Shown: positions 18,412-33,836 of the stretch, piece after piece
How the letters are laid out: each line of letters begins with the position of its first letter
How positions within the stretch are numbered: the stretch's first letter is position 1
NCBI GenBank assembly: GCA_965200965.1
Contig: OZ241744.1
Coordinates: forward strand, 3,360,001-3,424,000
From: an uncultured Candidatus Binatia bacterium
GTDB taxonomy: Bacteria > Desulfobacterota > Binatia > Bin18
DNA length: 64,000 nucleotides
Reading direction: 5' to 3'
The notes under the pieces: generated by a model
Databases searched by the model: none
What the model was told of the DNA's origin: nothing
What the model saw: the letters and a program-made list of their open reading frames with translations, nothing else
Made by a program: the position numbers and the translations under genes

Positions 18412-19040
18412 ATGGAATATTCCGCGCTTCCGCCAATTTTCACGATCGAGCAAGCCGCGGGCTACTTGCAGGTGAGCGTTGGGAAATTGCGTGCCGAACT
18501 GGAGAGTGGCCGCATTCCAGGGCTGAAAATCGCGGGTCAATGGCGCATCGAGCGGCGGGCGCTTGACCATTGGCCGAGTCTCCTCTGCATGATTTTGCAC
18601 TGCACGCCCGCTTGGCGAATGTCGGAACCAACTTGGCGGATACATATATCAGCGCATGGAAGATTTACCAAACAGAGGAGATGCCCAACTATTCCGGCGT
18701 CGTCCACGAGATACGAGACATCCTGACCCTGCTGTTGGATACAATAGCTCCGAACGGAGATGTTATGGCTGAAACTGGCTTCAAACTTGAAGCCGGACAT
18801 AACAATCCTACTCGCCGGCAACGTGTCCGCTACGCGGTTCGTAGACTGTACGACCCCGAACATGCAAAAGAGATCGCGAGCGACTTCGATCTTCTCGAAA
18901 TCCTGTGTGAACGCTTGGCTCAAGCCGCTACAGGTGCCTATCGTCGTGCATCCGATCTGGCTCATAATTCGACCCCGCGGGAGAGAGCGTATCGGGTGCT
19001 CAAGCAATGGGAAGGTCTTGTCGCCCAGCTTCTTCCAGAA
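18412..19040 (+). pseudogene. Frameshifted excisionase-type HTH fused to a predicted pPIWI-associated nuclease-like (pPIWI_RE_Y) domain
   Basis: AGGAG RBS plus MEYSALPPIFTIEQAAGYLQVS...GRIPGLKIAGQWRI (HTH_17). Near 18570 the frame shifts into EIRDIL...IAPNGDV...GFK...PTRRQRVRYA...ASDLAH. Domain call from remembered motif similarity. Confidence 0.55.
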
Positions 19041-19229
19041 CGCCAGGACGCGCTTCACGCATCTGGTAGCAGCGGTATGAAGAGGCGAAAGAGCGACGCT
19101 TACCCCTCTGCGAGTTTGCACGAACTGAGCAGACGGGGCTTTCTCAAAGGAGTGGGGACATCTGTAGCTGGGTCGGTAGGCGTGCTGACTGCCCTGGCGG
19201 TTCAAGCCGCAAAAAGAAAGGATCGGCCT

Positions 19230-20171
19230 ATGACACGCTTTGGGATACAGATCGAACCCCAGTTTGGCTTTTCGTATCAGGAGGTCGCCGGCCTGGCCCA
19301 AGACGCCGAGCGACTGGGCTTTGACGGTCTGTGGGTGTCTGACCACCTGTTCTGGGACGCGCAGTCCGAACAGCGCAACTGTCTGGACGCCTGGACCCTG
19401 CTGACCGCCCTGGCCCCGGTCACGACTCGCCTGCGCCTCGGCACGCTGGTCAGCTGCAACTCCTACCGCCTGCCCAGCGTGCTGGCCAAGGTGACGGCCA
19501 GTTTTGACCACCTGAGCCAGGGCCGGCTGGAGTTCGGCATTGGTGCCGGCTGGAAGGAGATGGAGTATACGGCCTACGGCATCCCCTTTCCGCGGGTTGG
19601 TGTCCGGCTGGCCCAACTCGAAGAGGCGGTGCAGCTCATGCAACTGCTGTGGACCCGGCCGCGGGCCTCATTTCAGGGCAAATACTACCAGCTTGAGCGG
19701 GCGGTGTGCGCGCCCAAGCCGGTTCAGCAGCCGCTCAAGACCTGGATTGGCGGCATGGGCGAGAAAAAGCTGCTGCGGATTGTGGCCCGCCACGCTAGCG
19801 GCTGGAACGCTATGCCCGGCGTACCGGCCGAGGCCATGCAGAAAAAGCTGGACGCGCTGCGCCGGCACTGCGACGCGCTCGGGCGGGACGTGGCCAGCAT
19901 CGACAAGTCGCTGTTCATCCTGTGCTGCATCGTTGACGATGAGGCCGAACTCAGAACCCACGCGGCCGACCTGGAAAAAACCCTGGGCACGGCCGATATC
20001 ATCCGGGCTGGGCGCAAGATTCGTACCGCCGGTACGCCCGAGCAGGTGGCCGACACGCTGCGCGGCTTTCAGCGCCTCGGCTTTGACTATTTTATCGCCA
20101 TGTTTCCCTACCGGCGGGACGCCGAGATGCTGGAGCGCTTCAGCCGCCAAGTCGTGCCGCTGCTGGCCTAG
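19230..20171 (+). CDS. LLM-class (probably F420-dependent) oxidoreductase
   Basis: GFDGLWVSDH, RLGTLV, SQGRLEFGIGAGW, PKPVQQP; own AAAGGA RBS inside the longer 533-aa ORF. Confidence 0.9.
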   Translation: MTRFGIQIEPQFGFSYQEVAGLAQDAERLGFDGLWVSDHLFWDAQSEQRNCLDAWTLLTALAPVTTRLRLGTLVSCNSYRLPSVLAKVTASFDHLSQGRLEFGIGAGWKEMEYTAYGIPFPRVGVRLAQLEEAVQLMQLLWTRPRASFQGKYYQLERAVCAPKPVQQPLKTWIGGMGEKKLLRIVARHASGWNAMPGVPAEAMQKKLDALRRHCDALGRDVASIDKSLFILCCIVDDEAELRTHAADLEKTLGTADIIRAGRKIRTAGTPEQVADTLRGFQRLGFDYFIAMFPYRRDAEMLERFSRQVVPLLA

Positions 20172-23989: not shown

Positions 23990-25243
23990 ATGGCTTGGCC
24001 TGTGCGCTACAAACTCGTCGGTCTGCTGGCCACCGGCAGCATGATTAACTATGCCGACCGGGTGAACATCTCGGTGGCCGCGCCGGTGATGATGGCCGCC
24101 CTCGGCTGGGATGAGGCCCAGTTCGGGCTGATCTTTTCGGCCTTTCTGCTCGGCTACACCCTGCTCCAGATTCCCGGCGGGATTATCGCCGACCGCTGGA
24201 ATACGGTCTGGGTGGTGGCGATTGCGTGCTTTGGCTTCTCGCTGTTTACCGCCCTGACGCCGTTTGGAGCGCTGGCGTTTGGCCTGATGCTGGTCCTGCG
24301 GTTCAGTGTCGGCCTGCTGGAATCGGTCAGCTTTCCGGCCTATGCGGCGCTGAACGCGCGCTGGATTCCGCGCTATGAGTATGGCCGCGCCCAGAACATC
24401 AGCCTGTCGGGTTCGCACATCGGTCAAGCCCTGGCCTATCCGGTGACGACCTGGATTATTGCCACCTTTGCCTGGCCGGCGGTGTTTTATTTTAACGGCC
24501 TGCTGGGCGGGCTGTGGCTGATCGTGTGGCTGGCTTCGGTCACGAACACGCCGGCCGAGCATCCTCGCATTAGCCAGCAGGAGTTGCGGGAAATTGAAGA
24601 CAACCTGGCTCCGCGGCCTCAGACGACGGTCTCCCCGCTGCGTCTGCTCAGAAACCGTCACGTTCTGCTGCTCTCTCTGGCTTATATGTACATGGTGTAC
24701 GGGCTGTGGATGGTGATTCTGTGGTTGCCGACCTATCTGGTCCAGGCCCGTGGCTTTTCGCTGGAGGCAATGGGGGTGCTGGGCATCATTCCGACGGTGG
24801 CGGGTGCCTTGGGCCTCATCTCGGGCGGGACAATTTCGGACGTGTTGCTGCGGCGTGGCTGGAGTCCGCGGGTGGCCCGAGCTCAGGCCCCGGCCTTGTG
24901 CGCGTTTCTGGGCGTACCGAGTATCCTGGCCGCGGCGTTTGTGCCGTGGCCGATGGTGTCGGTCGGCTGTCTGGCCCTGTATATGTATTTTGCCAATCTG
25001 GGCAGCGGCGCGTGCTGGGCAGTGCCGGTCGAGCTGAATCCGAGGCAGATTGGAGCCATATCGGGGGTGATGAACGGGGCCGGCAATTTTGCCGGGATTT
25101 TTGGGCCGATGAGTGCCGGCTTTCTGGTGGCGGCAACGGGCAGCTGGGAGCTGCCGCTGGTGGCCATCGCCGTCATGCTGCTGGTAGCGACCCTGCTCTA
25201 CTATTTCCTGGTTGTGCCCGAGCCGATTGAGCTGTCAGGATGA
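23990..25243 (+). CDS. MFS transporter, anion:cation symporter family
   Basis: INYADRVNISVA, GYTLLQIPGG, ESVSFPA, about 12 TM segments. Confidence 0.92.
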   Translation: MAWPVRYKLVGLLATGSMINYADRVNISVAAPVMMAALGWDEAQFGLIFSAFLLGYTLLQIPGGIIADRWNTVWVVAIACFGFSLFTALTPFGALAFGLMLVLRFSVGLLESVSFPAYAALNARWIPRYEYGRAQNISLSGSHIGQALAYPVTTWIIATFAWPAVFYFNGLLGGLWLIVWLASVTNTPAEHPRISQQELREIEDNLAPRPQTTVSPLRLLRNRHVLLLSLAYMYMVYGLWMVILWLPTYLVQARGFSLEAMGVLGIIPTVAGALGLISGGTISDVLLRRGWSPRVARAQAPALCAFLGVPSILAAAFVPWPMVSVGCLALYMYFANLGSGACWAVPVELNPRQIGAISGVMNGAGNFAGIFGPMSAGFLVAATGSWELPLVAIAVMLLVATLLYYFLVVPEPIELSG

Positions 25244-25527
25244 ATGATCCTGACCCGTACAAAGACTTCACCGAGCGCCTGAAGCTGCTGAGCAGCAAGC
25301 GCCCGGATTTGATCACAACCACCCTTGGGAATATCTTCACCATGCGTCTCATTGGAAACAAGACGCATGGTGATATGGCGGAGATAGCAATTGCCGAGTT
25401 TATCAATCAATACATGTACGACTTCCGCTCAATTCACGTCGGGAAAGACCTGTACCGCGCCAAGTCAAAATCGATTGTTTTCTCACGCCCTTGTAGCCTC
25501 GGAGGCTGGCCACACAGCGGCGCTTGA
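25240..25527 (+). pseudogene. Truncated putative type II restriction endonuclease (5' part only)
   Basis: Lower-GC ORF with THGDMAEIAIAEF helix directly upstream of a DNA methyltransferase; sequence character changes after LYRAKSK; too short for a full REase. Confidence 0.5.
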
Positions 25528-25577
25528 GAAAGTCGAGGACAATATTACGCTGCTAAAGCGGGAACAATAATGAAGAC

Positions 25578-26711
25578 ATGGCACACACACTTCCGCTCTT
25601 TGACGACCTCGTCCTTGACGCCCCATCTACGGAGGGGATCAAGTACGCTGGGTCTAAGCTGAAGCTCCTTCCGCACCTGCTGCAACTGGTCAAGAAAGTC
25701 GGAGCGGAGACGGTTCTGGACGGGTTTTCGGGAACAAGCAGGGTATCGCAGGCGCTTGCCAAATGTGGCTATCGAGTCGTGTGTAATGACATTGCTGTCT
25801 GGTCTGAAGTTTTTGGCACCTGTTATCTGCTTAACACCAAAGAACCGGAGGCGTATCAGCCGCTCATTGATCATCTCAACGCCGTCCCGCCGGTTGACGG
25901 GTGGTTCACCGAACACTATGGCGGGAACGCTAACGGAGGCTGTGCGATACAGCGCGATGGCCGTAAGACCCCTTGGCAGCTACACAATACCCGCAAACTG
26001 GACGCGATCCGGCAGGAAATTGAAGCGCTCGCTCTTGACTCTGTAGATAAAGCGGTGGCCCTGAGCAGCCTGATTTTGGCGCTTGATCGCGTAGATAGTA
26101 CCCTGGGACACTTTGTCTCGTATCTCAAAGACTGGTCTCCTCGCTCCTATAAGAAGCTGATACTCCAGGTCCCGAATGTCTTTGCGTCGGCGCACGAACA
26201 CCGGGTGTACCGGAGCGACATATTTGACCTGCTCCCTGGCGTTCCTGTCGATCTGGCCTATTTCGATCCTCCGTATGGATCAAACAATGAGAAAATGCCG
26301 CCGTCACGGGTCCGCTACGCCTCCTACTACCATATTTGGACAAGCGTCTGTCTCTTCGATAAGCCAGACCTCTTTGGTAAGGCTAATCGTCGCACGGATA
26401 CGTCGGATACAGTAGCGGCATCGGTGTTTGAGGAGTACCGACGAAACGCCGCAGGGCGTTTCATTGCCGTCGAGGCAATTGAGAGACTTCTCAAGGCGAC
26501 CCGGACACGCTGGATTATCCTGTCGTACAGCTCTGGGGGGCGGGCGACAGCTGAAGAACTGAACGAAGTTCTGCGCCGTAATGGGCTCCTCCGAGAGGTT
26601 GTTGAGATCGGCTACAGGAAGAACGTTATGTCTGGCATGAAGTGGACCAATGAATGGTTAAGAGATGCGGAGCAAGCAAATCGAGAGTTCTTGTTCCTGC
26701 TCGAAAAGTGA
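25578..26711 (+). CDS. N6-adenine DNA methyltransferase, D12/alpha class
   Basis: IKYAGSKLKL, motif I DGFSGT, motif IV YFDPPY, ILSYSS. Confidence 0.92.
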   Translation: MAHTLPLFDDLVLDAPSTEGIKYAGSKLKLLPHLLQLVKKVGAETVLDGFSGTSRVSQALAKCGYRVVCNDIAVWSEVFGTCYLLNTKEPEAYQPLIDHLNAVPPVDGWFTEHYGGNANGGCAIQRDGRKTPWQLHNTRKLDAIRQEIEALALDSVDKAVALSSLILALDRVDSTLGHFVSYLKDWSPRSYKKLILQVPNVFASAHEHRVYRSDIFDLLPGVPVDLAYFDPPYGSNNEKMPPSRVRYASYYHIWTSVCLFDKPDLFGKANRRTDTSDTVAASVFEEYRRNAAGRFIAVEAIERLLKATRTRWIILSYSSGGRATAEELNEVLRRNGLLREVVEIGYRKNVMSGMKWTNEWLRDAEQANREFLFLLEK

Positions 26712-26729: not shown

Positions 26730-26903
26730 TTACGCCTCTTTCCACACCGCCGAGACCAGCTCGGTGTCAAGATAGGCCGTGCCTTCGGTGACTTTGCCGC
26801 TGGCGAGCGCATGACCCGGCAATAGCTGTTGTGGTAGGATTTGCCGGAGTTCAATCTGTCCGCCGGCGACCCCAATGGAACTCTCAGACCACGTTTGCGC
26901 CAC
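26730..26903 (-). pseudogene. Chimeric remnant ORF (N-terminus shared with 30550 ORF; SnoaL/NTF2-like C-terminal fragment)
   Basis: GTG-AQTWSESSIGVAGGQ start with GGGAG RBS; ends GKVTEGTAYLDTELVSAVWKEA. Confidence 0.4.
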
Positions 26904-26990
26904 CGCATCTCCCTGTGTGCACTCCCCGTGGCTTAGCAAGGCCGCCTGCCGGAGTCAAGGAAAGCGCGGCCTGAGCCGGGGCAATTCTGC
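26856..26990. repeat. Diverged direct repeat, left copy, flanking the three-gene cassette
   Basis: 26856-26903 matches 30503-30550 at 43/48 nt (manual count); weaker similarity continues for about 80 bp. Confidence 0.8.
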
Positions 26991-27010: not shown

Positions 27011-27979
27011 TCACATCAAGCAGAGCGCGATAGCGCTGCCGATAGCCAGCCCAATAATCACTGAAAAGACCAACGCTTTTACAATTGTCCGCCATCTCCA
27101 GTTGAAAAAAGTAAAAACAGACGGCCGCCATCTCCAGTTGAAAAAAGTGAAAACAGAGAGAATCAGGGCGAACAGAGAAAAAACAAGAGAAAAAACAGGT
27201 GTGAAAGCGTCCAATGTTCGGATGTCAGGCAGGCTAGTTTTGATGCCTGCCATATAGGGGAGCCCGATAGCTGCCATGAGGATCGCTAGTAGGCCGACTA
27301 CCAGCGAGGTAAACAGGTTAATTTTTTGGTATACTTCGTCCAGCTTGTCTTTTGTTTCACCAGGCCCGCTGCGGAAATCGTCAATTCCGAAGTCTTCTAT
27401 GACGAGACGTTTGGGGGGCCGTCGGTATCGCTCCCATTCCTCATCTCCCTTGCTGATATCAAAGTAAGTAGTCTTGACGAAATCGAGAACGGCGATAGCC
27501 TCGCCCTTTTCTATTGATACTTTTTTATTCGACAGATTGTAAATTGGACAAAACAGATGCCCTACATAGCCCGGGTCAACCTGCGGTCCGCCGACCCAAA
27601 CCAATCCTTTGTATGCCAAGGCAACTCGAATGTTCCAACGCCCGATGAGGAACCTGGGCAGATTGAGTGTCTCGGCAGTTTGTATGACCGCTACCTCAAA
27701 CGCGGGGATACTGAGCGAATTGTTTGGCCAGCAGTCGCTGAGATGATAAGGCTTACCACCTACCACTACCTCATCGCCCACAGTCAATTTATAGGAAGCG
27801 GGCTTAAGATTCTTCTTATTGAAGGGGTCAATTAGCTGACCCTGCCTTACATAGAACTCTATCTCGTCGCTGAGGAGGACACCAGTCTTCTCCGGGTGGG
27901 AGTCCTTTTCCAAGGGCTTGATCTCGGCTAGCCGATCGCATTCCTCCTGTTGCCTCTTTGTACTCATTGCCTTAACCAC
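27011..27979 (-). CDS. dCTP deaminase/dUTPase-fold domain fused to C-terminal transmembrane helices
   Basis: GVLLSDEI, LKPASYKLTVG, ETLNLP, VDPGYVGHL, IYNLS; three hydrophobic segments after a short coiled linker. Confidence 0.85.
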   Translation of the reverse strand: MVKAMSTKRQQEECDRLAEIKPLEKDSHPEKTGVLLSDEIEFYVRQGQLIDPFNKKNLKPASYKLTVGDEVVVGGKPYHLSDCWPNNSLSIPAFEVAVIQTAETLNLPRFLIGRWNIRVALAYKGLVWVGGPQVDPGYVGHLFCPIYNLSNKKVSIEKGEAIAVLDFVKTTYFDISKGDEEWERYRRPPKRLVIEDFGIDDFRSGPGETKDKLDEVYQKINLFTSLVVGLLAILMAAIGLPYMAGIKTSLPDIRTLDAFTPVFSLVFSLFALILSVFTFFNWRWRPSVFTFFNWRWRTIVKALVFSVIIGLAIGSAIALCLM

Positions 27980-29039
27980 GCCTGCGATGGCTTGAATTGC
28001 TCTGAGGGATGTTGCGCGAAGCTATGTCGCTATGGCCCGGCCCATAGCCAAGGAAATGGACCGGCATCCCGATCTGTTCTTCAACCTTCCGGAGAAACCG
28101 CTCTACGGTAAATGAATGCCGGCCGTTTTTCCCGAAAGCTGGATCGAGATAGTCGAGATGATTGAGGACAATCTCCGTTGGAGCGTTCACCTCTATAGCC
28201 GATCGTACAATATCGGGATCGAACTTTGCGACCCGGCGGACCTTTCCTGTAACGGTTGTATACTCTCGAACGCATTGACCGCCCCGGCCTTTCGTAATTT
28301 CGTCCCATGTCGTTTCGTTCGGGAGAGGGCCGGAAGACCCGGCAACACGAATAGGAAATGCGCGAATGACGAGGACGATCTGATCCACATCCAGAGGACT
28401 CAGGCCCGCCTCGGAGACGAAAGCCGCCGCGCTGGTATCGCGGCTGGTCGTGTACGGATAGTCTGGGGCATGGAGCACCGACAAGCCAAAGCCTTGGGTT
28501 CCCTCTATGACAATACGGGCACCTTTTTTGAGGGCCTCACGCATGAGTGCTGTCGTGTCGCCGAGAAACGCCGTCAGTCGCCGGTCGTCCGCTGCCAAAA
28601 TACTTCGTCCCGAGCGACGGGCGCGTTCTATGACCGCCGCACCTGTCCCGCTTCCCGTCGAACCTATCCGGCTCTGCAAGTCCCAGTCATGTTCTGTCTG
28701 CTTGTGGGCCTCGGAAATGACCACGGCACGCGGACTAATTCTCAGCCGACTCGCTTCCAGAGGGACATCTTCACGGACACGCTCAATTTCTTTGAGCAGG
28801 CGCGGGACGTCAATGTACGAGCCTGGACCGATGATAAGAGTTGGGTCCGGCAACAGACAGGCCGTTGGGAGGTGACGAAACACATGCCGCTTGTTTCTCT
28901 CATCTACGACGGTATGTCCGGAATTGGAGCCGCCAACCCGCACAACGACGGAGGCCTTTTGGGTTTTGGTAAGCCAGTGCGCGACTTTTCCCTTGCCCTC
29001 GGAGCCGAACTGCCCACCCACAACCACTGAAACCGGCAT
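27972..29039 (-). CDS. Adenylosuccinate synthetase homolog, short PurZ/PurZ0-like form
   Basis: GGQFGSEGKGK, GGSNSGHT, IGSTGSGTG, IEGTQG, YPYTTSRD, TTVTGKVRRV, NHLDY; 355 aa. Confidence 0.9.
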   Translation of the reverse strand: MPVSVVVGGQFGSEGKGKVAHWLTKTQKASVVVRVGGSNSGHTVVDERNKRHVFRHLPTACLLPDPTLIIGPGSYIDVPRLLKEIERVREDVPLEASRLRISPRAVVISEAHKQTEHDWDLQSRIGSTGSGTGAAVIERARRSGRSILAADDRRLTAFLGDTTALMREALKKGARIVIEGTQGFGLSVLHAPDYPYTTSRDTSAAAFVSEAGLSPLDVDQIVLVIRAFPIRVAGSSGPLPNETTWDEITKGRGGQCVREYTTVTGKVRRVAKFDPDIVRSAIEVNAPTEIVLNHLDYLDPAFGKNGRHSFTVERFLRKVEEQIGMPVHFLGYGPGHSDIASRNIPQSNSSHRRRG

Positions 29040-29056
29040 CAGTTTCCCCTATTCCG

Positions 29057-30550
29057 TTACAAATCCGTTCGGAGAGATAGCGTCCCGGAATTGGCTTGCC
29101 CCGTGGTTGAGGAGACGCCATTTCCGAGTCTGGGGATAATCAGGGGTTCCTCGTCCGCTGTTCCCAGGGCTTCGGACAGGCCAGCCAGATAAAACGTGCC
29201 CACAAGGGCCGATGTGATGGCATCGAGTTCGTCATGCGTCACGTTGTGTGTCTCGTAATCACCCCGTATGCCAAATTCCCACAAGCCCGCCTTCAGCCAC
29301 TCCGGGCCGGCACCCTTGCGGGGGATACGCATGATATCTTGCGCCGCGCCGGGATAGCTCTCAATCACCTGAACATCATGCTCACGGAGTGTGCGGGCGA
29401 GTCGGATCCCTCTTGCCGTGAGTTTCTGCATGCTCGGGATAAGACAGGGATAGACATTGATACCGCGTCGCCTGAGCTCGCGTTCGCATTCGCGCGTGAT
29501 TCCAAATTCCGTCCGACCGGGGTCGTCATCCCCAACGGCAGCACGGCCAGCCGGAAGACATAAAGGGGAGTCGATAGAAACGAGACGTGGACAGGCCCGT
29601 ATCGTTTTTTCGATCAATGCGTCGTCCGAGAACACTGGCGCTACCTGCGCTTGCGATCCATCCAGAAGGCACCAACCGCTGGCCCGTTCCTCGGAGCCGG
29701 TAAGATCGATTCCAACGATTCGAAGTCTTGAGAGAGGACCGGGGCTGAACAGATCAGAGAACCGGAAGCGTCCCTGCATCAACTCACCAGATGGCATGGG
29801 AAGGCTCGGCAGCGTCTGCCAGTCCTGCGGTGCCGACCAGTCTCGAAAACATACATTCTTGGAAAACAACTCCAGTTGCGTGCCAAGTCGAGAGACCACC
29901 TCGTCAAATATCGCTCCCATGGCTGCGATGTCGGCCCGGTTGTAGCGAATGAGCTTTTGGAGGGCGTCTTGATCGCCACGAACATACCGATGCCAAAGCA
30001 CGACGGCCGCAGCGCCGTCCAGGCTGGTCAAATCGTTTCGAAAGCCGATACCCAACGCTTTTTCGATGGCCTTTTGCCCACCTGTCAAACCGACGCGGCG
30101 GCAAAGATACATCAGGTCAATATGCGGCTCGGGCAGAACGATCTCGGGAAATTCCCGTGTAATGAACTTGGCGTCGAAGCGGATCCCGTTGAAGGTAACC
30201 AGAGCCTTTGCGCGCGCGGCGTCCTCTTGTAACTGTCTCGGAGCTTGCCCCTTGATGATCGTTTTCGCATGACCTCCAAAAGACCATCCGATGACGGTAA
30301 TCTCGTCATAATAATGGCTGAGGCCGGTCGTCTCAATATCGAGAAAAAGAATGTCCTCGGGAGAATCAACACAGGTAGCGAACTGGCGTCGCAATTTTTG
30401 CCGGATGGTACGAGGCGTAACTGAGCGCTCTTTCCTGCCTGTTCTCCTTGGTTCCTTTGCCTGATCGGGCGGATTGCCGACGCCGGGAAGGCTGAGGGCG
30501 GCCTGTCCGCCGGTACCCTCAATGGAACTCTCAGGCCACGTTTGCGCCAC
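29057..30550 (-). CDS. RNase H-like (YprB/RNase_H_2) exonuclease fused to DUF429 predicted nuclease
   Basis: LFLDIETTGL, VTFNGIRFD, HIDL, YNRAD (DEDDy-like), then IVGIDLTG, VSIDSPL, RECEREL, VIESYP, DELDAI. Confidence 0.88.
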   Translation of the reverse strand: MAQTWPESSIEGTGGQAALSLPGVGNPPDQAKEPRRTGRKERSVTPRTIRQKLRRQFATCVDSPEDILFLDIETTGLSHYYDEITVIGWSFGGHAKTIIKGQAPRQLQEDAARAKALVTFNGIRFDAKFITREFPEIVLPEPHIDLMYLCRRVGLTGGQKAIEKALGIGFRNDLTSLDGAAAVVLWHRYVRGDQDALQKLIRYNRADIAAMGAIFDEVVSRLGTQLELFSKNVCFRDWSAPQDWQTLPSLPMPSGELMQGRFRFSDLFSPGPLSRLRIVGIDLTGSEERASGWCLLDGSQAQVAPVFSDDALIEKTIRACPRLVSIDSPLCLPAGRAAVGDDDPGRTEFGITRECERELRRRGINVYPCLIPSMQKLTARGIRLARTLREHDVQVIESYPGAAQDIMRIPRKGAGPEWLKAGLWEFGIRGDYETHNVTHDELDAITSALVGTFYLAGLSEALGTADEEPLIIPRLGNGVSSTTGQANSGTLSLRTDL

Positions 30551-30632
30551 GCTGCTTTTTCCTCCCTGTCTGCGGCTCCCCGTAGTCTAGCAAAGCTGTC
30601 AAGGAAAAGGAACGCGGCCCGGGTGCCGGGGA
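30503..30632. repeat. Diverged direct repeat, right copy
   Basis: Partner of 26856-26990; includes the GGAGG RBS and first 16 codons of the exonuclease ORF. Confidence 0.8.
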
Positions 30633-30707
30633 AGCTCGGAATTGACAAAACTGTGAGGTTCAGCGTAGCCTTCTTGCGCCTACGCCAACTGCACTGAGGA
30701 GGGGGAT

Positions 30708-32519
30708 ATGCAGCCACAGCAATTGATTCGGCTTTCCGCGGCGTTTCTCGTGTTTGGATTCATGCTCGGAGTCCTGCCCGGTCAGCGCGCCAGCGCTCAA
30801 GGCTTGACCGAGATGCAGCAGGACTCTGGGCAGTGGGTCTTGCCCGGGAAGGATTATGCCCTGACCCGTCATAGCCCGCTGACCCAGATCACCAGGGATA
30901 ACGTCGCAAATCTCAAGGCGGCCTGGACCTTCTCGACCGGAGTCCTGCGTGGCCATGAGGGCGCTCCGCTGGTCGTCGGCAGCATGATGTATGTGGTCAC
31001 GCCTTTTCCCAACATTGTCTATGCCCTGGACCTGAGCAAGCCGGGACCGGCGATGCAATGGAAATATGCGCCTGAGCAGGACGAGGCGGCTATTCCGGTT
31101 GCCTGCTGTGACACGGTCAACCGTGGGGCTGCCTACGCCGAGGGCAAAATCTTCTTCAATCAGCTCGACGCCCATACGGTTGCCCTGGATGCCGAGACCG
31201 GCGAAGAGGTGTGGAAGGTCAAACAGGGCGATATCGGCCAGGGCCAGACGATCACGATGGCACCCCTGGTAATTCGGGACAAGGTCCTGACCGGCATCAG
31301 CGGCGGGGAATTTGGCGTGCGCGGCTTTGTCACCGCCAATGATATCAACACCGGCGAGCAGGTGTGGCGGGCCTACAGCACCGGGCCTGATTCCGAAGTG
31401 CTCATCGGCGCAGGTTTTTCGCCGACCTACGCCTCACACCAGGGCAAAGACCTGGGGGTGTCAACCTGGAAAGGCGAGGAGTGGAAGCGCGGCGGCGGCA
31501 CGACCTGGGGCTGGTACAGCTACGACCCGGAGTTGGACCTGTTCTATTATGGCACGGGTAACCCGGGTGCCTGGAATCCCGATCAACGGCCGGGCGAGAA
31601 CAAGTGGTCAATGACGCTGTTTGCCCGCAACCCTGACACCGGCATGGCCAAATGGGCGTATCAAATGACCCCCCACGACGCCTGGGACTATGACGGCGTC
31701 AATGAGAGTATCCTGATTGATCTGCCGGGCACGAACGGCAGCGCTGCCCGGAAGGTCTTGATCCATTTTGACCGCAACGGCTTTGCCTATGTGCTTGACC
31801 GCGCCACCGGCCGGCTGCTCAGCGCCAAGCCCTTCGGACATGTGAACTGGGCCAGTGGCGTTGATCTGGAGACCGGGCTGCCGATTGAAAACCCGGACAA
31901 GCGCACCCGGCAGGGGGAGAATGTGACCGATATCTGCCCGGCGGCGATGGGTGCCAAGGATCAGCAGCCAGCCGCGTATTCGCCCAAGACGGGCCTGCTG
32001 TATGTGCCGACCAACAACCTGTGTATGGAATACGAGGGGATGCAGGTGAACTACATGGCCGGCGTGCCTTATGTGGGGGCGATTGTGAAGATGTCACCTG
32101 GACCGGGCGGACACCGGGGCGAGTTTCTGGCCTGGGACCCGGTAGCGGGTGAGAAAAAATGGGGCATCAAAGAAAAGTGGGCGGCCTGGAGCGGCGCGCT
32201 GTCCACTGCCGGCGATGTGGTGTTCTACGGCACGATGGACGGCTGGTTCAAGGCGGTTGACGCCACCAATGGCGAGGAGTTGTGGAAGTTCAAAACCGGC
32301 TCGGGCATTATTGGCGCACCCATGACCTATCTCGGCCCGGACGGCAAACAATATGTCGCTGTGCTGTCCGGTATTGGCGGCTGGTCCGGCCTGGTGGTTG
32401 CGGGTGATCTGGCCACCGACGACCCGACCGCGGCGCTGGGAGCGGTCGGTGCCTTTAGTGATCTGGGCCAGGACACCAACAAAGGCGGGATGCTGTACGT
32501 TTTCGGGCTTGATTCATAG
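30708..32519 (+). CDS. xoxF: PQQ-dependent methanol dehydrogenase, lanthanide-type XoxF
   Basis: Signal peptide, RGHEGAP, vicinal CCD, GGEFGVRG, WDYDGVNE (extra Asp lanthanide ligand). Confidence 0.9.
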   Translation: MQPQQLIRLSAAFLVFGFMLGVLPGQRASAQGLTEMQQDSGQWVLPGKDYALTRHSPLTQITRDNVANLKAAWTFSTGVLRGHEGAPLVVGSMMYVVTPFPNIVYALDLSKPGPAMQWKYAPEQDEAAIPVACCDTVNRGAAYAEGKIFFNQLDAHTVALDAETGEEVWKVKQGDIGQGQTITMAPLVIRDKVLTGISGGEFGVRGFVTANDINTGEQVWRAYSTGPDSEVLIGAGFSPTYASHQGKDLGVSTWKGEEWKRGGGTTWGWYSYDPELDLFYYGTGNPGAWNPDQRPGENKWSMTLFARNPDTGMAKWAYQMTPHDAWDYDGVNESILIDLPGTNGSAARKVLIHFDRNGFAYVLDRATGRLLSAKPFGHVNWASGVDLETGLPIENPDKRTRQGENVTDICPAAMGAKDQQPAAYSPKTGLLYVPTNNLCMEYEGMQVNYMAGVPYVGAIVKMSPGPGGHRGEFLAWDPVAGEKKWGIKEKWAAWSGALSTAGDVVFYGTMDGWFKAVDATNGEELWKFKTGSGIIGAPMTYLGPDGKQYVAVLSGIGGWSGLVVAGDLATDDPTAALGAVGAFSDLGQDTNKGGMLYVFGLDS

Positions 32520-32525
32520 CTCGGT

Positions 32526-32555
32526 CCGCCCCCCTCCTGTGGGACGAGGGGGTGG
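32526..32555 (+). terminator. GC-rich hairpin after xoxF
   Basis: CCGCCCCCCTC...GAGGGGGTGG inverted repeat; no U-tract, so possibly an mRNA-stabilising stem. Confidence 0.35.
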
Positions 32556-32588
32556 AGTCAGCCCACTTGGCCCTCCTGTCATCGTCTC

Positions 32589-33836
32589 ATGCTGTCTCGG
32601 AGCTATTCAGCCACCCGGGTTTCTTTCCCGCGCCGCCTCCTGTTCGCCGGGCTGGGGGCGTTTTGCGGGGTCTTCCTGTTCGTCACGCTTGGCTGGAGTG
32701 AGGAGGCTGTCGGCTTACGGGTGTGTGCCGACCCGAACAACCTGCCCTTCTCGAACCGGCAGGGCCAGGGCTTTGAGAACACAATCGCCGAGTTGCTGGC
32801 CAAGGAGCGGGGGGGTGCCGTGGCCTATACCTGGTGGCCGCAGCGCCGCGGTTTTCTGCGTGGCACGCTGAACGCCGGTCGGTGTGAGGTGGTCATGGGC
32901 GTCCCGGCCAAGTATGAGTCAGTGCTTACCACCCGGCCCTACTACCAGTCCACCTACGCCTTTGTGTATCGGCCCGACGCCGACTATCGCTTGGCTTCCC
33001 TGGACGACGCGGCGCTGCGCAGCCTGCGTATCGGCGTACATCTGATTGGCGACGACTACACCAACAGTCCGCCGGCCCACGCCCTCAGCCAGCGCGGGCT
33101 GGTCGAGAACGTGGTCGGCTACAGCGTGTACGGCAATTACGCCGAGGACAGCCCGCCCGGCAAAATTGTGGCTGCGGTTGCCGCCGGCGAGATTGATACC
33201 GCTCTGGTCTGGGGACCGATTGCCGGCTATTTCGCTCAGCGTTACACCCCACCCCTGCGGGTGACGCCGCTGCCGGCAGACGCCGGTTCGGCCCGGCTGC
33301 CGTTTCGCTACGGCATAGCCGTGGGCGTCCGTCGCGGCAACCAGGCCCTCAAAGCAGAGCTGGACGCCCTGCTGACTCGTCATGCCGGGCCGATCCGGGC
33401 CATTCTGCACGACTACGGAGTGCCCCTGTCGGGCGGGGAGGAGTCCGCCCATGCGCCGACCCCGGATGCCTCCAGACAAACCGCCCAACTGAAGACGCCG
33501 CCAGCCGTGGCAGCCTCCAGCGACGAGTTGGCAGGCACCGCCAAAAATCCCTTTACCGGCGACCCAAGGGCCATTGCCGAGGGCAAAGAGTATTACAAGA
33601 TGCTGAACTGCTACGGCTGTCACGGAATGCGCGGTGGAGGAGGCATGGGGCCGAGCATCAACGATGCCAAGTGGAGCGTTGGCAGGGGGACAGACGCCGA
33701 TGTGATGCAGCAGATCATGGAAGGGCGGGGCAAGATGCCGTCGTTCAAAGATTCGATTGAGCCGGAGCAGGCCTGGAAGATCATCGCCTATGTGCGGTCC
33801 CTGTACACAGGCAGGCCAGAGAAAGTGACTTGGTAG
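32589..33836 (+). CDS. XoxJ/MxaJ-type substrate-binding protein fused to C-terminal cytochrome c (XoxG-like)
   Basis: LRVCADPNNLPFSN, YTWWPQRRGF, VWGPIAGY; then NPF...CYGCHG...GGGMGPS...GKMPSF. Confidence 0.88.
   Translation: MLSRSYSATRVSFPRRLLFAGLGAFCGVFLFVTLGWSEEAVGLRVCADPNNLPFSNRQGQGFENTIAELLAKERGGAVAYTWWPQRRGFLRGTLNAGRCEVVMGVPAKYESVLTTRPYYQSTYAFVYRPDADYRLASLDDAALRSLRIGVHLIGDDYTNSPPAHALSQRGLVENVVGYSVYGNYAEDSPPGKIVAAVAAGEIDTALVWGPIAGYFAQRYTPPLRVTPLPADAGSARLPFRYGIAVGVRRGNQALKAELDALLTRHAGPIRAILHDYGVPLSGGEESAHAPTPDASRQTAQLKTPPAVAASSDELAGTAKNPFTGDPRAIAEGKEYYKMLNCYGCHGMRGGGGMGPSINDAKWSVGRGTDADVMQQIMEGRGKMPSFKDSIEPEQAWKIIAYVRSLYTGRPEKVTW

Follow-up and report, generated by a model that had tools for sequence, protein, structure and literature searches.

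A PurZ-like synthetase encoded between an exonuclease and a membrane-anchored dUTPase-fold protein: a candidate anti-phage signalling operon in a Binatia bacterium

Why does a bacterial chromosome carry, besides its own adenylosuccinate synthetase gene, a relative of the phage enzyme PurZ placed between a nuclease gene and a gene encoding a membrane protein? The operon that raises this question lies in a stretch of 64,000 nt from contig OZ241744.1 of an uncultured Candidatus Binatia bacterium; this whole stretch is called the window hereafter, and positions follow its forward-strand numbering. The operon spans 27011..30550 and consists of three open reading frames (ORFs) on the minus strand, for a nuclease (29057-30550, 497 aa), a PurZ-like synthetase (27972-29039, 355 aa) and a putative sensor-effector (27011-27979, 322 aa). 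The first two are separated by 17 bp, and the synthetase and sensor ORFs overlap by 8 bp, an overlap that turns into a 4-bp gap if translation begins instead at the ATG four codons further on. The GC content of the operon (55%) is lower than that of its flanks (64% and 62.5%) and of the genome (61.5%). An earlier, sequence-only reading of this DNA had described three co-oriented, tightly coupled genes of lower GC content than their surroundings, and our analysis reproduces this description. A public contig covering the stretch agrees with it at every position, although this contig may be its source. A promoter scan gave matches at chance level only. We consider this operon to be real, widespread and probably defensive, and we propose a specific mechanism for it. 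A defence role of some kind appears quite likely, and we lean towards an anti-phage signalling system in which an exonuclease supplies deoxyguanosine monophosphate (dGMP), the synthetase converts it to the succinylated nucleotide dSMP, and a membrane-bound Dcd/dUTPase-fold trimer responds.

The synthetase matches the Pfam family Adenylsucc_synt (E 3e-59) and stays below two NCBIfam cut-offs, with 261.8 bits for PurZ (NF038379, cut-off 300) and 281.7 bits for archaeal PurA (cut-off 368). A canonical purA is encoded separately (G000:C1:1612781), so that the synthetase is additional to it, and no pur genes were found among the recurring neighbours of the operon in metagenomes or in those flanking ORFs that were compared with Pfam (108 of 243); a housekeeping purine locus was rejected on these grounds. 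The residues of the enzyme were mapped to those of the phage S-2L, phiVC8 and Ghobes enzymes, using PMC8342488 for S-2L PurZ, and PMC12884076. Where PurA has its catalytic Asp13, the synthetase has S13 (S23 in S-2L); it further has S127-T128, R142 and Q182, I230-R231-V232 belongs to a PIRV loop with an insertion, in which V232 stands at the Val241 position, T261 corresponds to S-2L T273, and K266 stands at the PurA Arg303 site as K267 does in phiVC8. The Ser at the Asp13 site, the Thr at the T273 site and the PIRV loop with its insertion are shared with the phage PurZ and PurZ0 enzymes (S-2L, phiVC8, Ghobes/Archimedes). The energy-donor site (N293-H294-x-D296) has an Asp as in PurA and Ghobes PurZ0, and the Asn/Phe/Gln-or-Asn adenine pocket of ATP-type PurZ is absent. 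Because D296 takes the place of the Gln or Asn of ATP-using PurZ, we infer that the synthetase uses GTP and is PurZ0-like at that site; the predicted reaction is dGMP + Asp + GTP to dSMP. Over 66 operon loci, position 13 is Ser or Gly in all (58 Ser, 8 Gly), Ser127, Ile230 and Asp296 are each found in 66/66, and Thr261 in 62/66. With the dGMP-site residues of PurZ (Ser13, Ser127, Ile230 and Thr261) in place, the PurZ-like assignment made earlier from the sequence stands.

The enzyme nonetheless differs from phage PurZ in being cellular, in its 32-37% identity, and in His294 and Ser40, which are specific to its own family; neither the partners of the phage cluster that makes 2-aminoadenine (Z), namely DatZ, MazZ, DutZ and DpoZ, nor a phage context was found in the locus. 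In a quick, midpoint-rooted tree of 70 rows from an unfinished search, the synthetase falls in a 31-row set (support 98), a separate branch that excludes the PurZ and PurZ0 enzymes characterised so far; among the operon enzymes nest several lone viral copies. Lone copies are carried by large viral contigs (L086, L087, L089 and L102), none of whose scanned ORFs was recognised as a Z-cluster partner, and in another viral contig (L090:6944-8894) a lone operon-type PurZ-like gene stands two genes upstream of the anti-CBASS gene Acb1. It is possible that the lone viral copies are counter-defence or decoy genes.

What would receive the product of such an enzyme? The downstream gene (27011..27979, minus strand) encodes a catalytically degenerate Dcd/dUTPase-fold domain (Pfam DCD, E 4e-12) followed by a helical stalk and membrane helices, and its product is predicted to be a homotrimeric sensor-effector. 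In the AlphaFold2 model (predicted local distance difference test, pLDDT, 85), the Dcd/dUTPase domain precedes three long helices, and the best Foldseek matches are archaeal dUTPases and dCTP deaminases (template-modelling score 0.78-0.82 over the target). Hydrophobic segments lie at residues 222-240, 262-280 and 303-321, and a membrane helix is predicted in 53/53 complete partners of the synthetase, by hydropathy, and in 147/150 representatives. At the sites of the motif-II Ser, the Dcd Arg and the Dcd Glu, the protein has V119, Y123 and P145; in E. coli numbering the Ser and Arg are S111 and R115, and E138 appears in PDB titles. The sensor family is large (1,114 clusters at 50% identity, E up to 1e-30, relatives without a PurZ neighbour included). 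Across the family, the motif-II Ser, the Dcd Arg and Glu and motif V are replaced and the motif-III Asp is kept; motif V was found in 0/203 family members and an RS[SG] motif in 2/203. A new invariant pocket set is seen instead, formed by R114, N116, G129-x-G131-P132, D135, P145 and N148. Catalysis by dUTPases requires motifs II and V, as stated in PMC1802613, and the Dcd domain of the operon looks catalytically dead. The protein thus shares with the dCTP deaminase and trimeric dUTPase superfamily its fold, a predicted trimer and the motif-III Asp, and departs from it by the replaced motifs, the motif-IV Gln among them, and by the fusion to a stalk and membrane helices. The three-copy model scored 0.78 (best control 0.00), passing a mark reached by 20/30 solved pairs and 1/23 single chains, in runs with at least 82% contact agreement and pLDDT of at least 64; its contacts extend from the Dcd core through the three-helix stalk (209-238) into the first membrane helix. 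This pass may reflect memory of solved Dcd trimers in the model.

A dUTPase-like partner could also point to a cellular Z-base pathway, where an active DutZ-like dGTP/dATP pyrophosphatase domain would feed PurZ and the host or a mobile element would put Z into DNA. Indeed, a dUTPase-like dutZ is present in all 98 PurZ0 phages (PMC12884076), and the synthetase is PurZ0-like at the GTP site. However, the Ghobes gp55 dUTPase keeps both an RS motif and a C-terminal motif V, which the sensor family lacks; in the genome, MazZ has no counterpart and DatZ is matched only weakly, through an HD domain (DpoZ was not searched for), and the membrane anchor is left unexplained. We therefore regard a Z-base pathway as very improbable.

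The first gene of the operon (29057..30550, minus strand) encodes a DEDD-type exonuclease domain of the RNase_H_2/YprB kind (Pfam RNase_H_2, E 1e-31) fused to a DUF429 domain with an RNase-H fold (a weak match, E 0.003, below the cut-off). Its acidic residues D71, E73, D126, D207, D282, D327, E397, D440 and D443 are invariant in 20 aligned homologues. In 104/120 nuclease homologues the protein continues into a full C-terminal P-loop kinase domain, which gives Pfam AAA_18/CoaE matches in the full-length proteins. This kinase has been lost in the lineage of the window, where a decayed remnant of its first strand and P-loop remains at the end of the nuclease gene (29060..29128, minus strand; alignment to the kinase domain start of P0129-P0131). 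The eight closest homologues (sequence clusters, 80-99%) all lack the kinase and end in a decayed P-loop. Is the operon itself then decaying? A decayed pseudo-operon is unlikely, given open frames in two genomes, ratios of nonsynonymous to synonymous substitution rates (dN/dS) below 1 and a kinase-less clade of eight clusters. Compared with L001, the closest relative locus, dN/dS was 0.26, 0.38 and 0.55 for the three operon genes and 0.07-0.15 for neighbouring genes; judged by these ratios, the operon is under purifying selection, yet evolves faster than its neighbours.

Are these parts kept together elsewhere? In the best 80 of 552 metagenome loci, which were selected by synthetase similarity alone, the gene for the membrane-anchored Dcd-fold protein (Dcd-TM) was present in 54/63 loci with at least 1 kb downstream; an AAA-ATPase protein was found instead in 5/63, and the other 4/63 include L012, which matches viral locus L086, and L073, which carries a phage head-morphogenesis gene. 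The exonuclease/DUF429 gene was present in 38/48 loci with at least 2 kb upstream, and all three genes in 34/44 loci with both flanks long enough. The three families therefore co-occur, as the sequence-only reading had claimed. That reading had nevertheless counted three genes and left the rest to host PurB and kinases, which misses further components: a P-loop kinase of the nucleoside monophosphate (NMP) type, fused or adjacent, in 41/45 DUF429 loci, and a deoxynucleoside kinase (dNK) in 30/80 loci. In 4 loci the DEDD domain has given way to one of PHP type, and six of the ten loci without exonuclease/DUF429 have a 230-250-aa gene of unknown family. The exchange of Dcd-TM for the AAA ATPase and of DEDD for PHP is part swapping typical of defence modules. 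In the best 80 of 195 viral loci, no exonuclease-DUF429 or Dcd-TM partner was found (0/80), and no cluster of structural genes was recognised among the 42 window ORFs scanned with PHROGs, in keeping with the earlier observation that phage structural genes are absent nearby; a prophage or Z-phage remnant was rejected accordingly. A single PHROGs match to a 'head maturation protease', 8.9 kb from the operon, is probably a host protease. The operon itself was seen neither in the viral contigs nor in loci for purine biosynthesis, settings of the kind that the sequence-only reading had named as evidence against itself.

Two of these genes deserve description. In L083:1705-3795, L008, L019, L022 and L072, the protein found in place of Dcd-TM has an all-helical N-terminal domain and an AAA ATPase with weak IetA matches, which suggests an alternative effector or sensor. 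The 230-250-aa family of unknown function, seen at L066:131-826 and in 13 other loci (14/80), has a conserved DPDNG motif and gave no Pfam, PADLOC or PDB match; hhalign did not show it to resemble RlmJ.

Beyond the metagenome loci, the distribution is patchy. A PurZ-like gene was found in 2/40 relatives, and Dcd-TM profile matches occur in 3/400 other genomes of the phylum and 1/401 in a second phylum. Nuclease homologues of one 90% cluster span several rhizobial genera, and the operon loci share no conserved flanking genes. A single-protein search of genome contigs returned 3 loci only, 2 of them ordinary purA; E. coli genomes gave no match with the one DNA query used, and plasmids no full-length nuclease-kinase match. 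Proteins that combine a Dcd fold with a stalk and a hydrophobic helix at the C-terminus, yet have no PurZ-like neighbour, are encoded at L218:1297-3541 (G458) and L216:8546-9217 (G237); the L218 gene follows a 397-aa gene of unknown family and lies opposite an HNH-like gene, as judged by eye. These two loci suggest that the sensor module pairs with other enzymes. On a Rhizobium plasmid (NZ_CP050089.1, L085:4401-15722), a short Asp-type PurA is found with purB, IMP dehydrogenase, folE, queC/D/E, nitrile hydratase and a phosphoribosyltransferase, a cluster which we presume to resemble a 7-deazapurine nucleoside (toyocamycin/sangivamycin-type) pathway.

The kinases bear on how the operon may work. 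As most copies own the full supply chain (exonuclease, kinase in 41/45, dNK in 30/80), a steady level of modified nucleotide would be possible without phage input, and one could imagine a guard arrangement like that of Panoptes, where a nucleotide reportedly keeps the effector off: the modified nucleotide, made constantly, would silence the membrane protein until phage enzymes that hydrolyse dNTPs or consume nucleotides deplete it and release toxicity. However, operons broken by a split or a transposon are found with an apparently whole Dcd-TM gene (a split synthetase in L071), and an operon that begins with a DNA exonuclease gene suggests DNA breakdown as the trigger, so that we consider a guard unlikely. 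Sabotage of the nucleotide pool, which we hold to be slightly less likely still, would have the enzymes deplete dGMP/dGTP or cause dZTP to be built into phage DNA, with the membrane protein as a regulator or localiser. PMC8342488 reports toxicity of the phage Z-cluster in E. coli and no discrimination between Z and A by polymerases; the kinase domain of L007, moreover, resembles the kinase part of a defensive dCTP deaminase (PADLOC dCTPase, E 6e-11). Against such a drain stands the dedicated downstream partner of 59/63 loci, with a conserved non-catalytic nucleotide pocket for which a simple drain would have no need.

Signalling, which we favour, would use all of these components. Purine deoxynucleoside monophosphates (dNMPs) are not intermediates of de novo synthesis, and dGMP rises mainly on DNA degradation, so that its level gives a clean sign of infection. 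Acting on broken DNA, the exonuclease is predicted to liberate dGMP, and the PurZ-like enzyme to convert it to the succinylated 2-aminoadenine nucleotide dSMP. The system kinase of most homologues would then raise dSMP, or dZMP after the action of host PurB, to the di- and triphosphate. The host genome encodes purB and gmk, and Gmk handles dZMP; the dedicated kinase in most copies suggests that the product is probably not a substrate of host Gmk, i.e. that it is the succinylated nucleotide rather than dZMP. On binding the phosphorylated product, the membrane-anchored, predicted dead Dcd/dUTPase trimer would bring about the arrest or death of the infected cell. For the kinase-less copy of the window, the phosphorylation would fall to host Gmk or, as in the Kongming defence system, to a phage dNMP kinase. 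Phage T5 escapes Kongming by dephosphorylating dNMPs (PMC13728456), which would give a reason for the accessory dNK: starting from deoxyguanosine, this enzyme would restore dGMP and so reverse the action of phage dNMP phosphatases such as Dmp of T5. Together, the exonuclease, the dGMP-type ligase, the NMP kinase, the dNK and the dead trimer, with its predicted dNTP binding, would link DNA ends to a membrane protein in a single coherent chain that passes through a modified purine dNTP. We put forward more tentatively a wider proposal, in which a PurZ-lineage enzyme would serve as an immune alarm, turning the dGMP of DNA destruction into a triphosphate that is conjugated to an amino acid (dSTP) or carries the Z base (dZTP) and would open a trimeric membrane sensor of dUTPase fold, with the dNK beating phage dNMP phosphatases and kinase-less copies borrowing a phage kinase; phage PurZ may itself be descended from this enzyme.

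How does this scheme compare with known nucleotide-signalling systems? According to PMC13454610 and bioRxiv 10.1101/2024.12.20.629578, Kongming combines the deaminase KomA, the dead HAM1 nucleoside triphosphate pyrophosphatase KomB, which senses dITP, and the SIR2 protein KomC; it offers a precedent for a dead pyrophosphatase sensor used with a borrowed phage kinase (PMC13454610). The predicted likeness concerns a base-modifying enzyme acting on a purine dNMP, kinases leading to the triphosphate and a dead sensor with the fold of a house-cleaning pyrophosphatase; as far as sequence can tell, the operon does contain a dead nucleotide-hydrolase fold coupled to an effector module beside a base-modifying enzyme. 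Where Kongming has a deaminase, HAM1 and SIR2, the operon has a PurA/PurZ ligase, a predicted Dcd/dUTPase trimer and membrane helices, respectively, together with an exonuclease and usually kinases of its own, and the two share no protein family: adenosine deaminase, HAM1 and SIR2 genes were all absent from the operon in Pfam, PADLOC and NCBIfam searches. In type II Metis (MisB-MisC), a membrane-spanning effector senses a mononucleotide released by DNA breakdown (bioRxiv 10.1101/2025.11.05.686725); no domain is annotated in MisC, and neither dUTPase nor deaminase is a word used in that paper. As described there, Metis reads pre-existing N6-methyl-dAMP (m6dAMP) and has a phosphatase, whereas the operon enzyme would create its signal. 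The haloacid dehalogenase (HAD) phosphatase MisB, MisA (PUA-calcineurin) and MisC were not found in the operon or among its recurring neighbours. In its design, the operon would work like base-modified nucleotide signalling, but it belongs neither to Kongming or Metis nor to the phage Z pathway. The view that no characterised system has this composition agrees with our literature search, which found no description of the operon, though subscription papers and the supplements of large defence screens could mention it; the main text and one supplement of PMC13069673 do not contain the operon terms.

Several observations weigh against the proposed scheme. The operon is not named as a defence system in PADLOC, NCBIfam or Pfam, and only weak matches of that kind were obtained (PDC-S44, E 1e-4). 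The site of PurA Arg303, which contacts the ribose 2'-OH, is Arg in 33/66 operon enzymes, and position 40 is Ser in 62/66, unlike PurA and PurZ; these two sites leave some doubt about the preference for a deoxy substrate and about which base it carries. The copy in the window is without both kinases, unlike most homologues, and neither a kinase half nor a dNK was found elsewhere in the host genome. In the reciprocal test, a PurZ-like neighbour stood beside only 2/4 genome matches of the sensor, so that the Dcd-TM module also pairs with other genes. A single membrane helix is predicted in 44/53 complete partners, against three in the window copy, which fits a receptor better than a pore. Of the trimeric Dcd-fold membrane effector proposed in the sequence-only reading, the degenerate motifs, the helices and the predicted trimer are thus retained, whereas 'membrane damage' is not a given. 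The same reading had named enrichment in defence islands as a check, and we found no significant excess. PADLOC matches were obtained for 28/243 flanking ORFs of cellular metagenome loci (L012 dropped as viral) and 16/134 ORFs of 20 arbitrary 9-kb control stretches from the host and its kin (p=1.0), or 10/134 in the control without luciferase-like hits (p=0.28), a comparison in which the control genomes are all close kin of the host, may be defence-rich and are not taxon-matched to the metagenome loci. Furthermore, many flanks hold ordinary metabolic genes.

This lack of excess, the metabolic flanks and the single-pass topology of most sensors would suit a mobile module for salvage, for addiction or for the sensing of DNA damage, which would signal DNA breakdown to a receptor in the membrane and have no part in defence. 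The patchy spread, the swapping of partners and the fast evolution of the sensor tail argue in the other direction, as do individual loci that adjoin BREX, short prokaryotic Argonaute, type I restriction-modification, DRT2 or AbiE genes, and no cytoplasmic signalling partner is conserved. A role outside defence is in our view unlikely, if a shade less so than a guard.

How did the operon come to this site? The sequence-only reading had it bracketed by a direct repeat, which is real (48 nt at 90% identity, 26856-26903 / 30503-30550, within a whole repeat of about 130 bp) and of which no further copies were found in the genome; what it had missed is the nature of the repeat. Copy A (30503..30640, minus strand) comprises the native promoter region and 16 codons from the start of an alpha/beta-hydrolase gene, which run on in frame into the nuclease gene; the copy is contiguous with the upstream region of a pyrroloquinoline quinone (PQQ) dehydrogenase gene as in same-genus genomes. 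Copy B (26848..26975, minus strand) holds the same promoter and hydrolase start and ends after about 19 codons, with 75-87% identity to the hydrolase start of G002, G004, G005 and G006. In these four congeners, all read across the site in full, the operon is absent and its place is taken by an operon for an alpha/beta-hydrolase, a luciferase-like monooxygenase and a SnoaL-like protein; the window keeps only the first hydrolase codons and the 3' remnant of the SnoaL-like gene (26731..26851, minus strand), the rest being deleted. The repeat is therefore a duplicated host promoter and hydrolase start captured by the nuclease gene, and the first 16 residues of the nuclease are host-derived; the N-termini before the shared part differ in close nuclease homologues. 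An attachment site or target duplication was ruled out by this comparison and by the junction. In a strain from another study, copy B is deleted and the largest differences lie in the membrane tail of the sensor, where a 36-bp tandem duplication of the window (27089..27157) has other letters.

The neighbours are of mixed nature. An intact type II adenine methyltransferase gene outside the operon (25578..26711, plus strand; PADLOC MTase_II, E 7e-168) follows the remnant of a type II restriction endonuclease gene (25240..25577, plus strand; REase_II, E 6e-38), confirming the pair pointed out earlier; the remnant has an internal deletion of about 500 bp (338 bp against 840 bp in L001, where the same operon occupies the same site beside an intact 279-aa endonuclease). 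The slot just downstream of the major facilitator superfamily (MFS) gene holds defence-like cargo that varies between congeners, with a C5 methyltransferase-HEPN-GmrSD_N set in G006 (L182:5799-8764), a dynamin-like pair and a canonical Dcd in G002 (L183:4437-9318), and type II restriction-modification in the window. On the other side, divergent from the captured promoter, a PQQ-dependent dehydrogenase gene and a binding-protein/cytochrome c gene (30708-33836) form an ordinary flank. At 18570-20171, a predicted pPIWI-associated nuclease domain (PF18165, E 4e-11) lies in frame before a luciferase-like monooxygenase in a patch of lower GC, possibly another inserted defence remnant.

If the scheme is true, it would provide a second class of base-modified immune messenger after dITP, together with a new sensor fold. 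It would also assign a function in cells to PurZ-like enzymes, which until now have been studied as the means by which phages replace A with Z. The scheme has a bearing, too, on how Z-genome biosynthesis arose and on the reason for the lone PurZ-like genes of some large phages.

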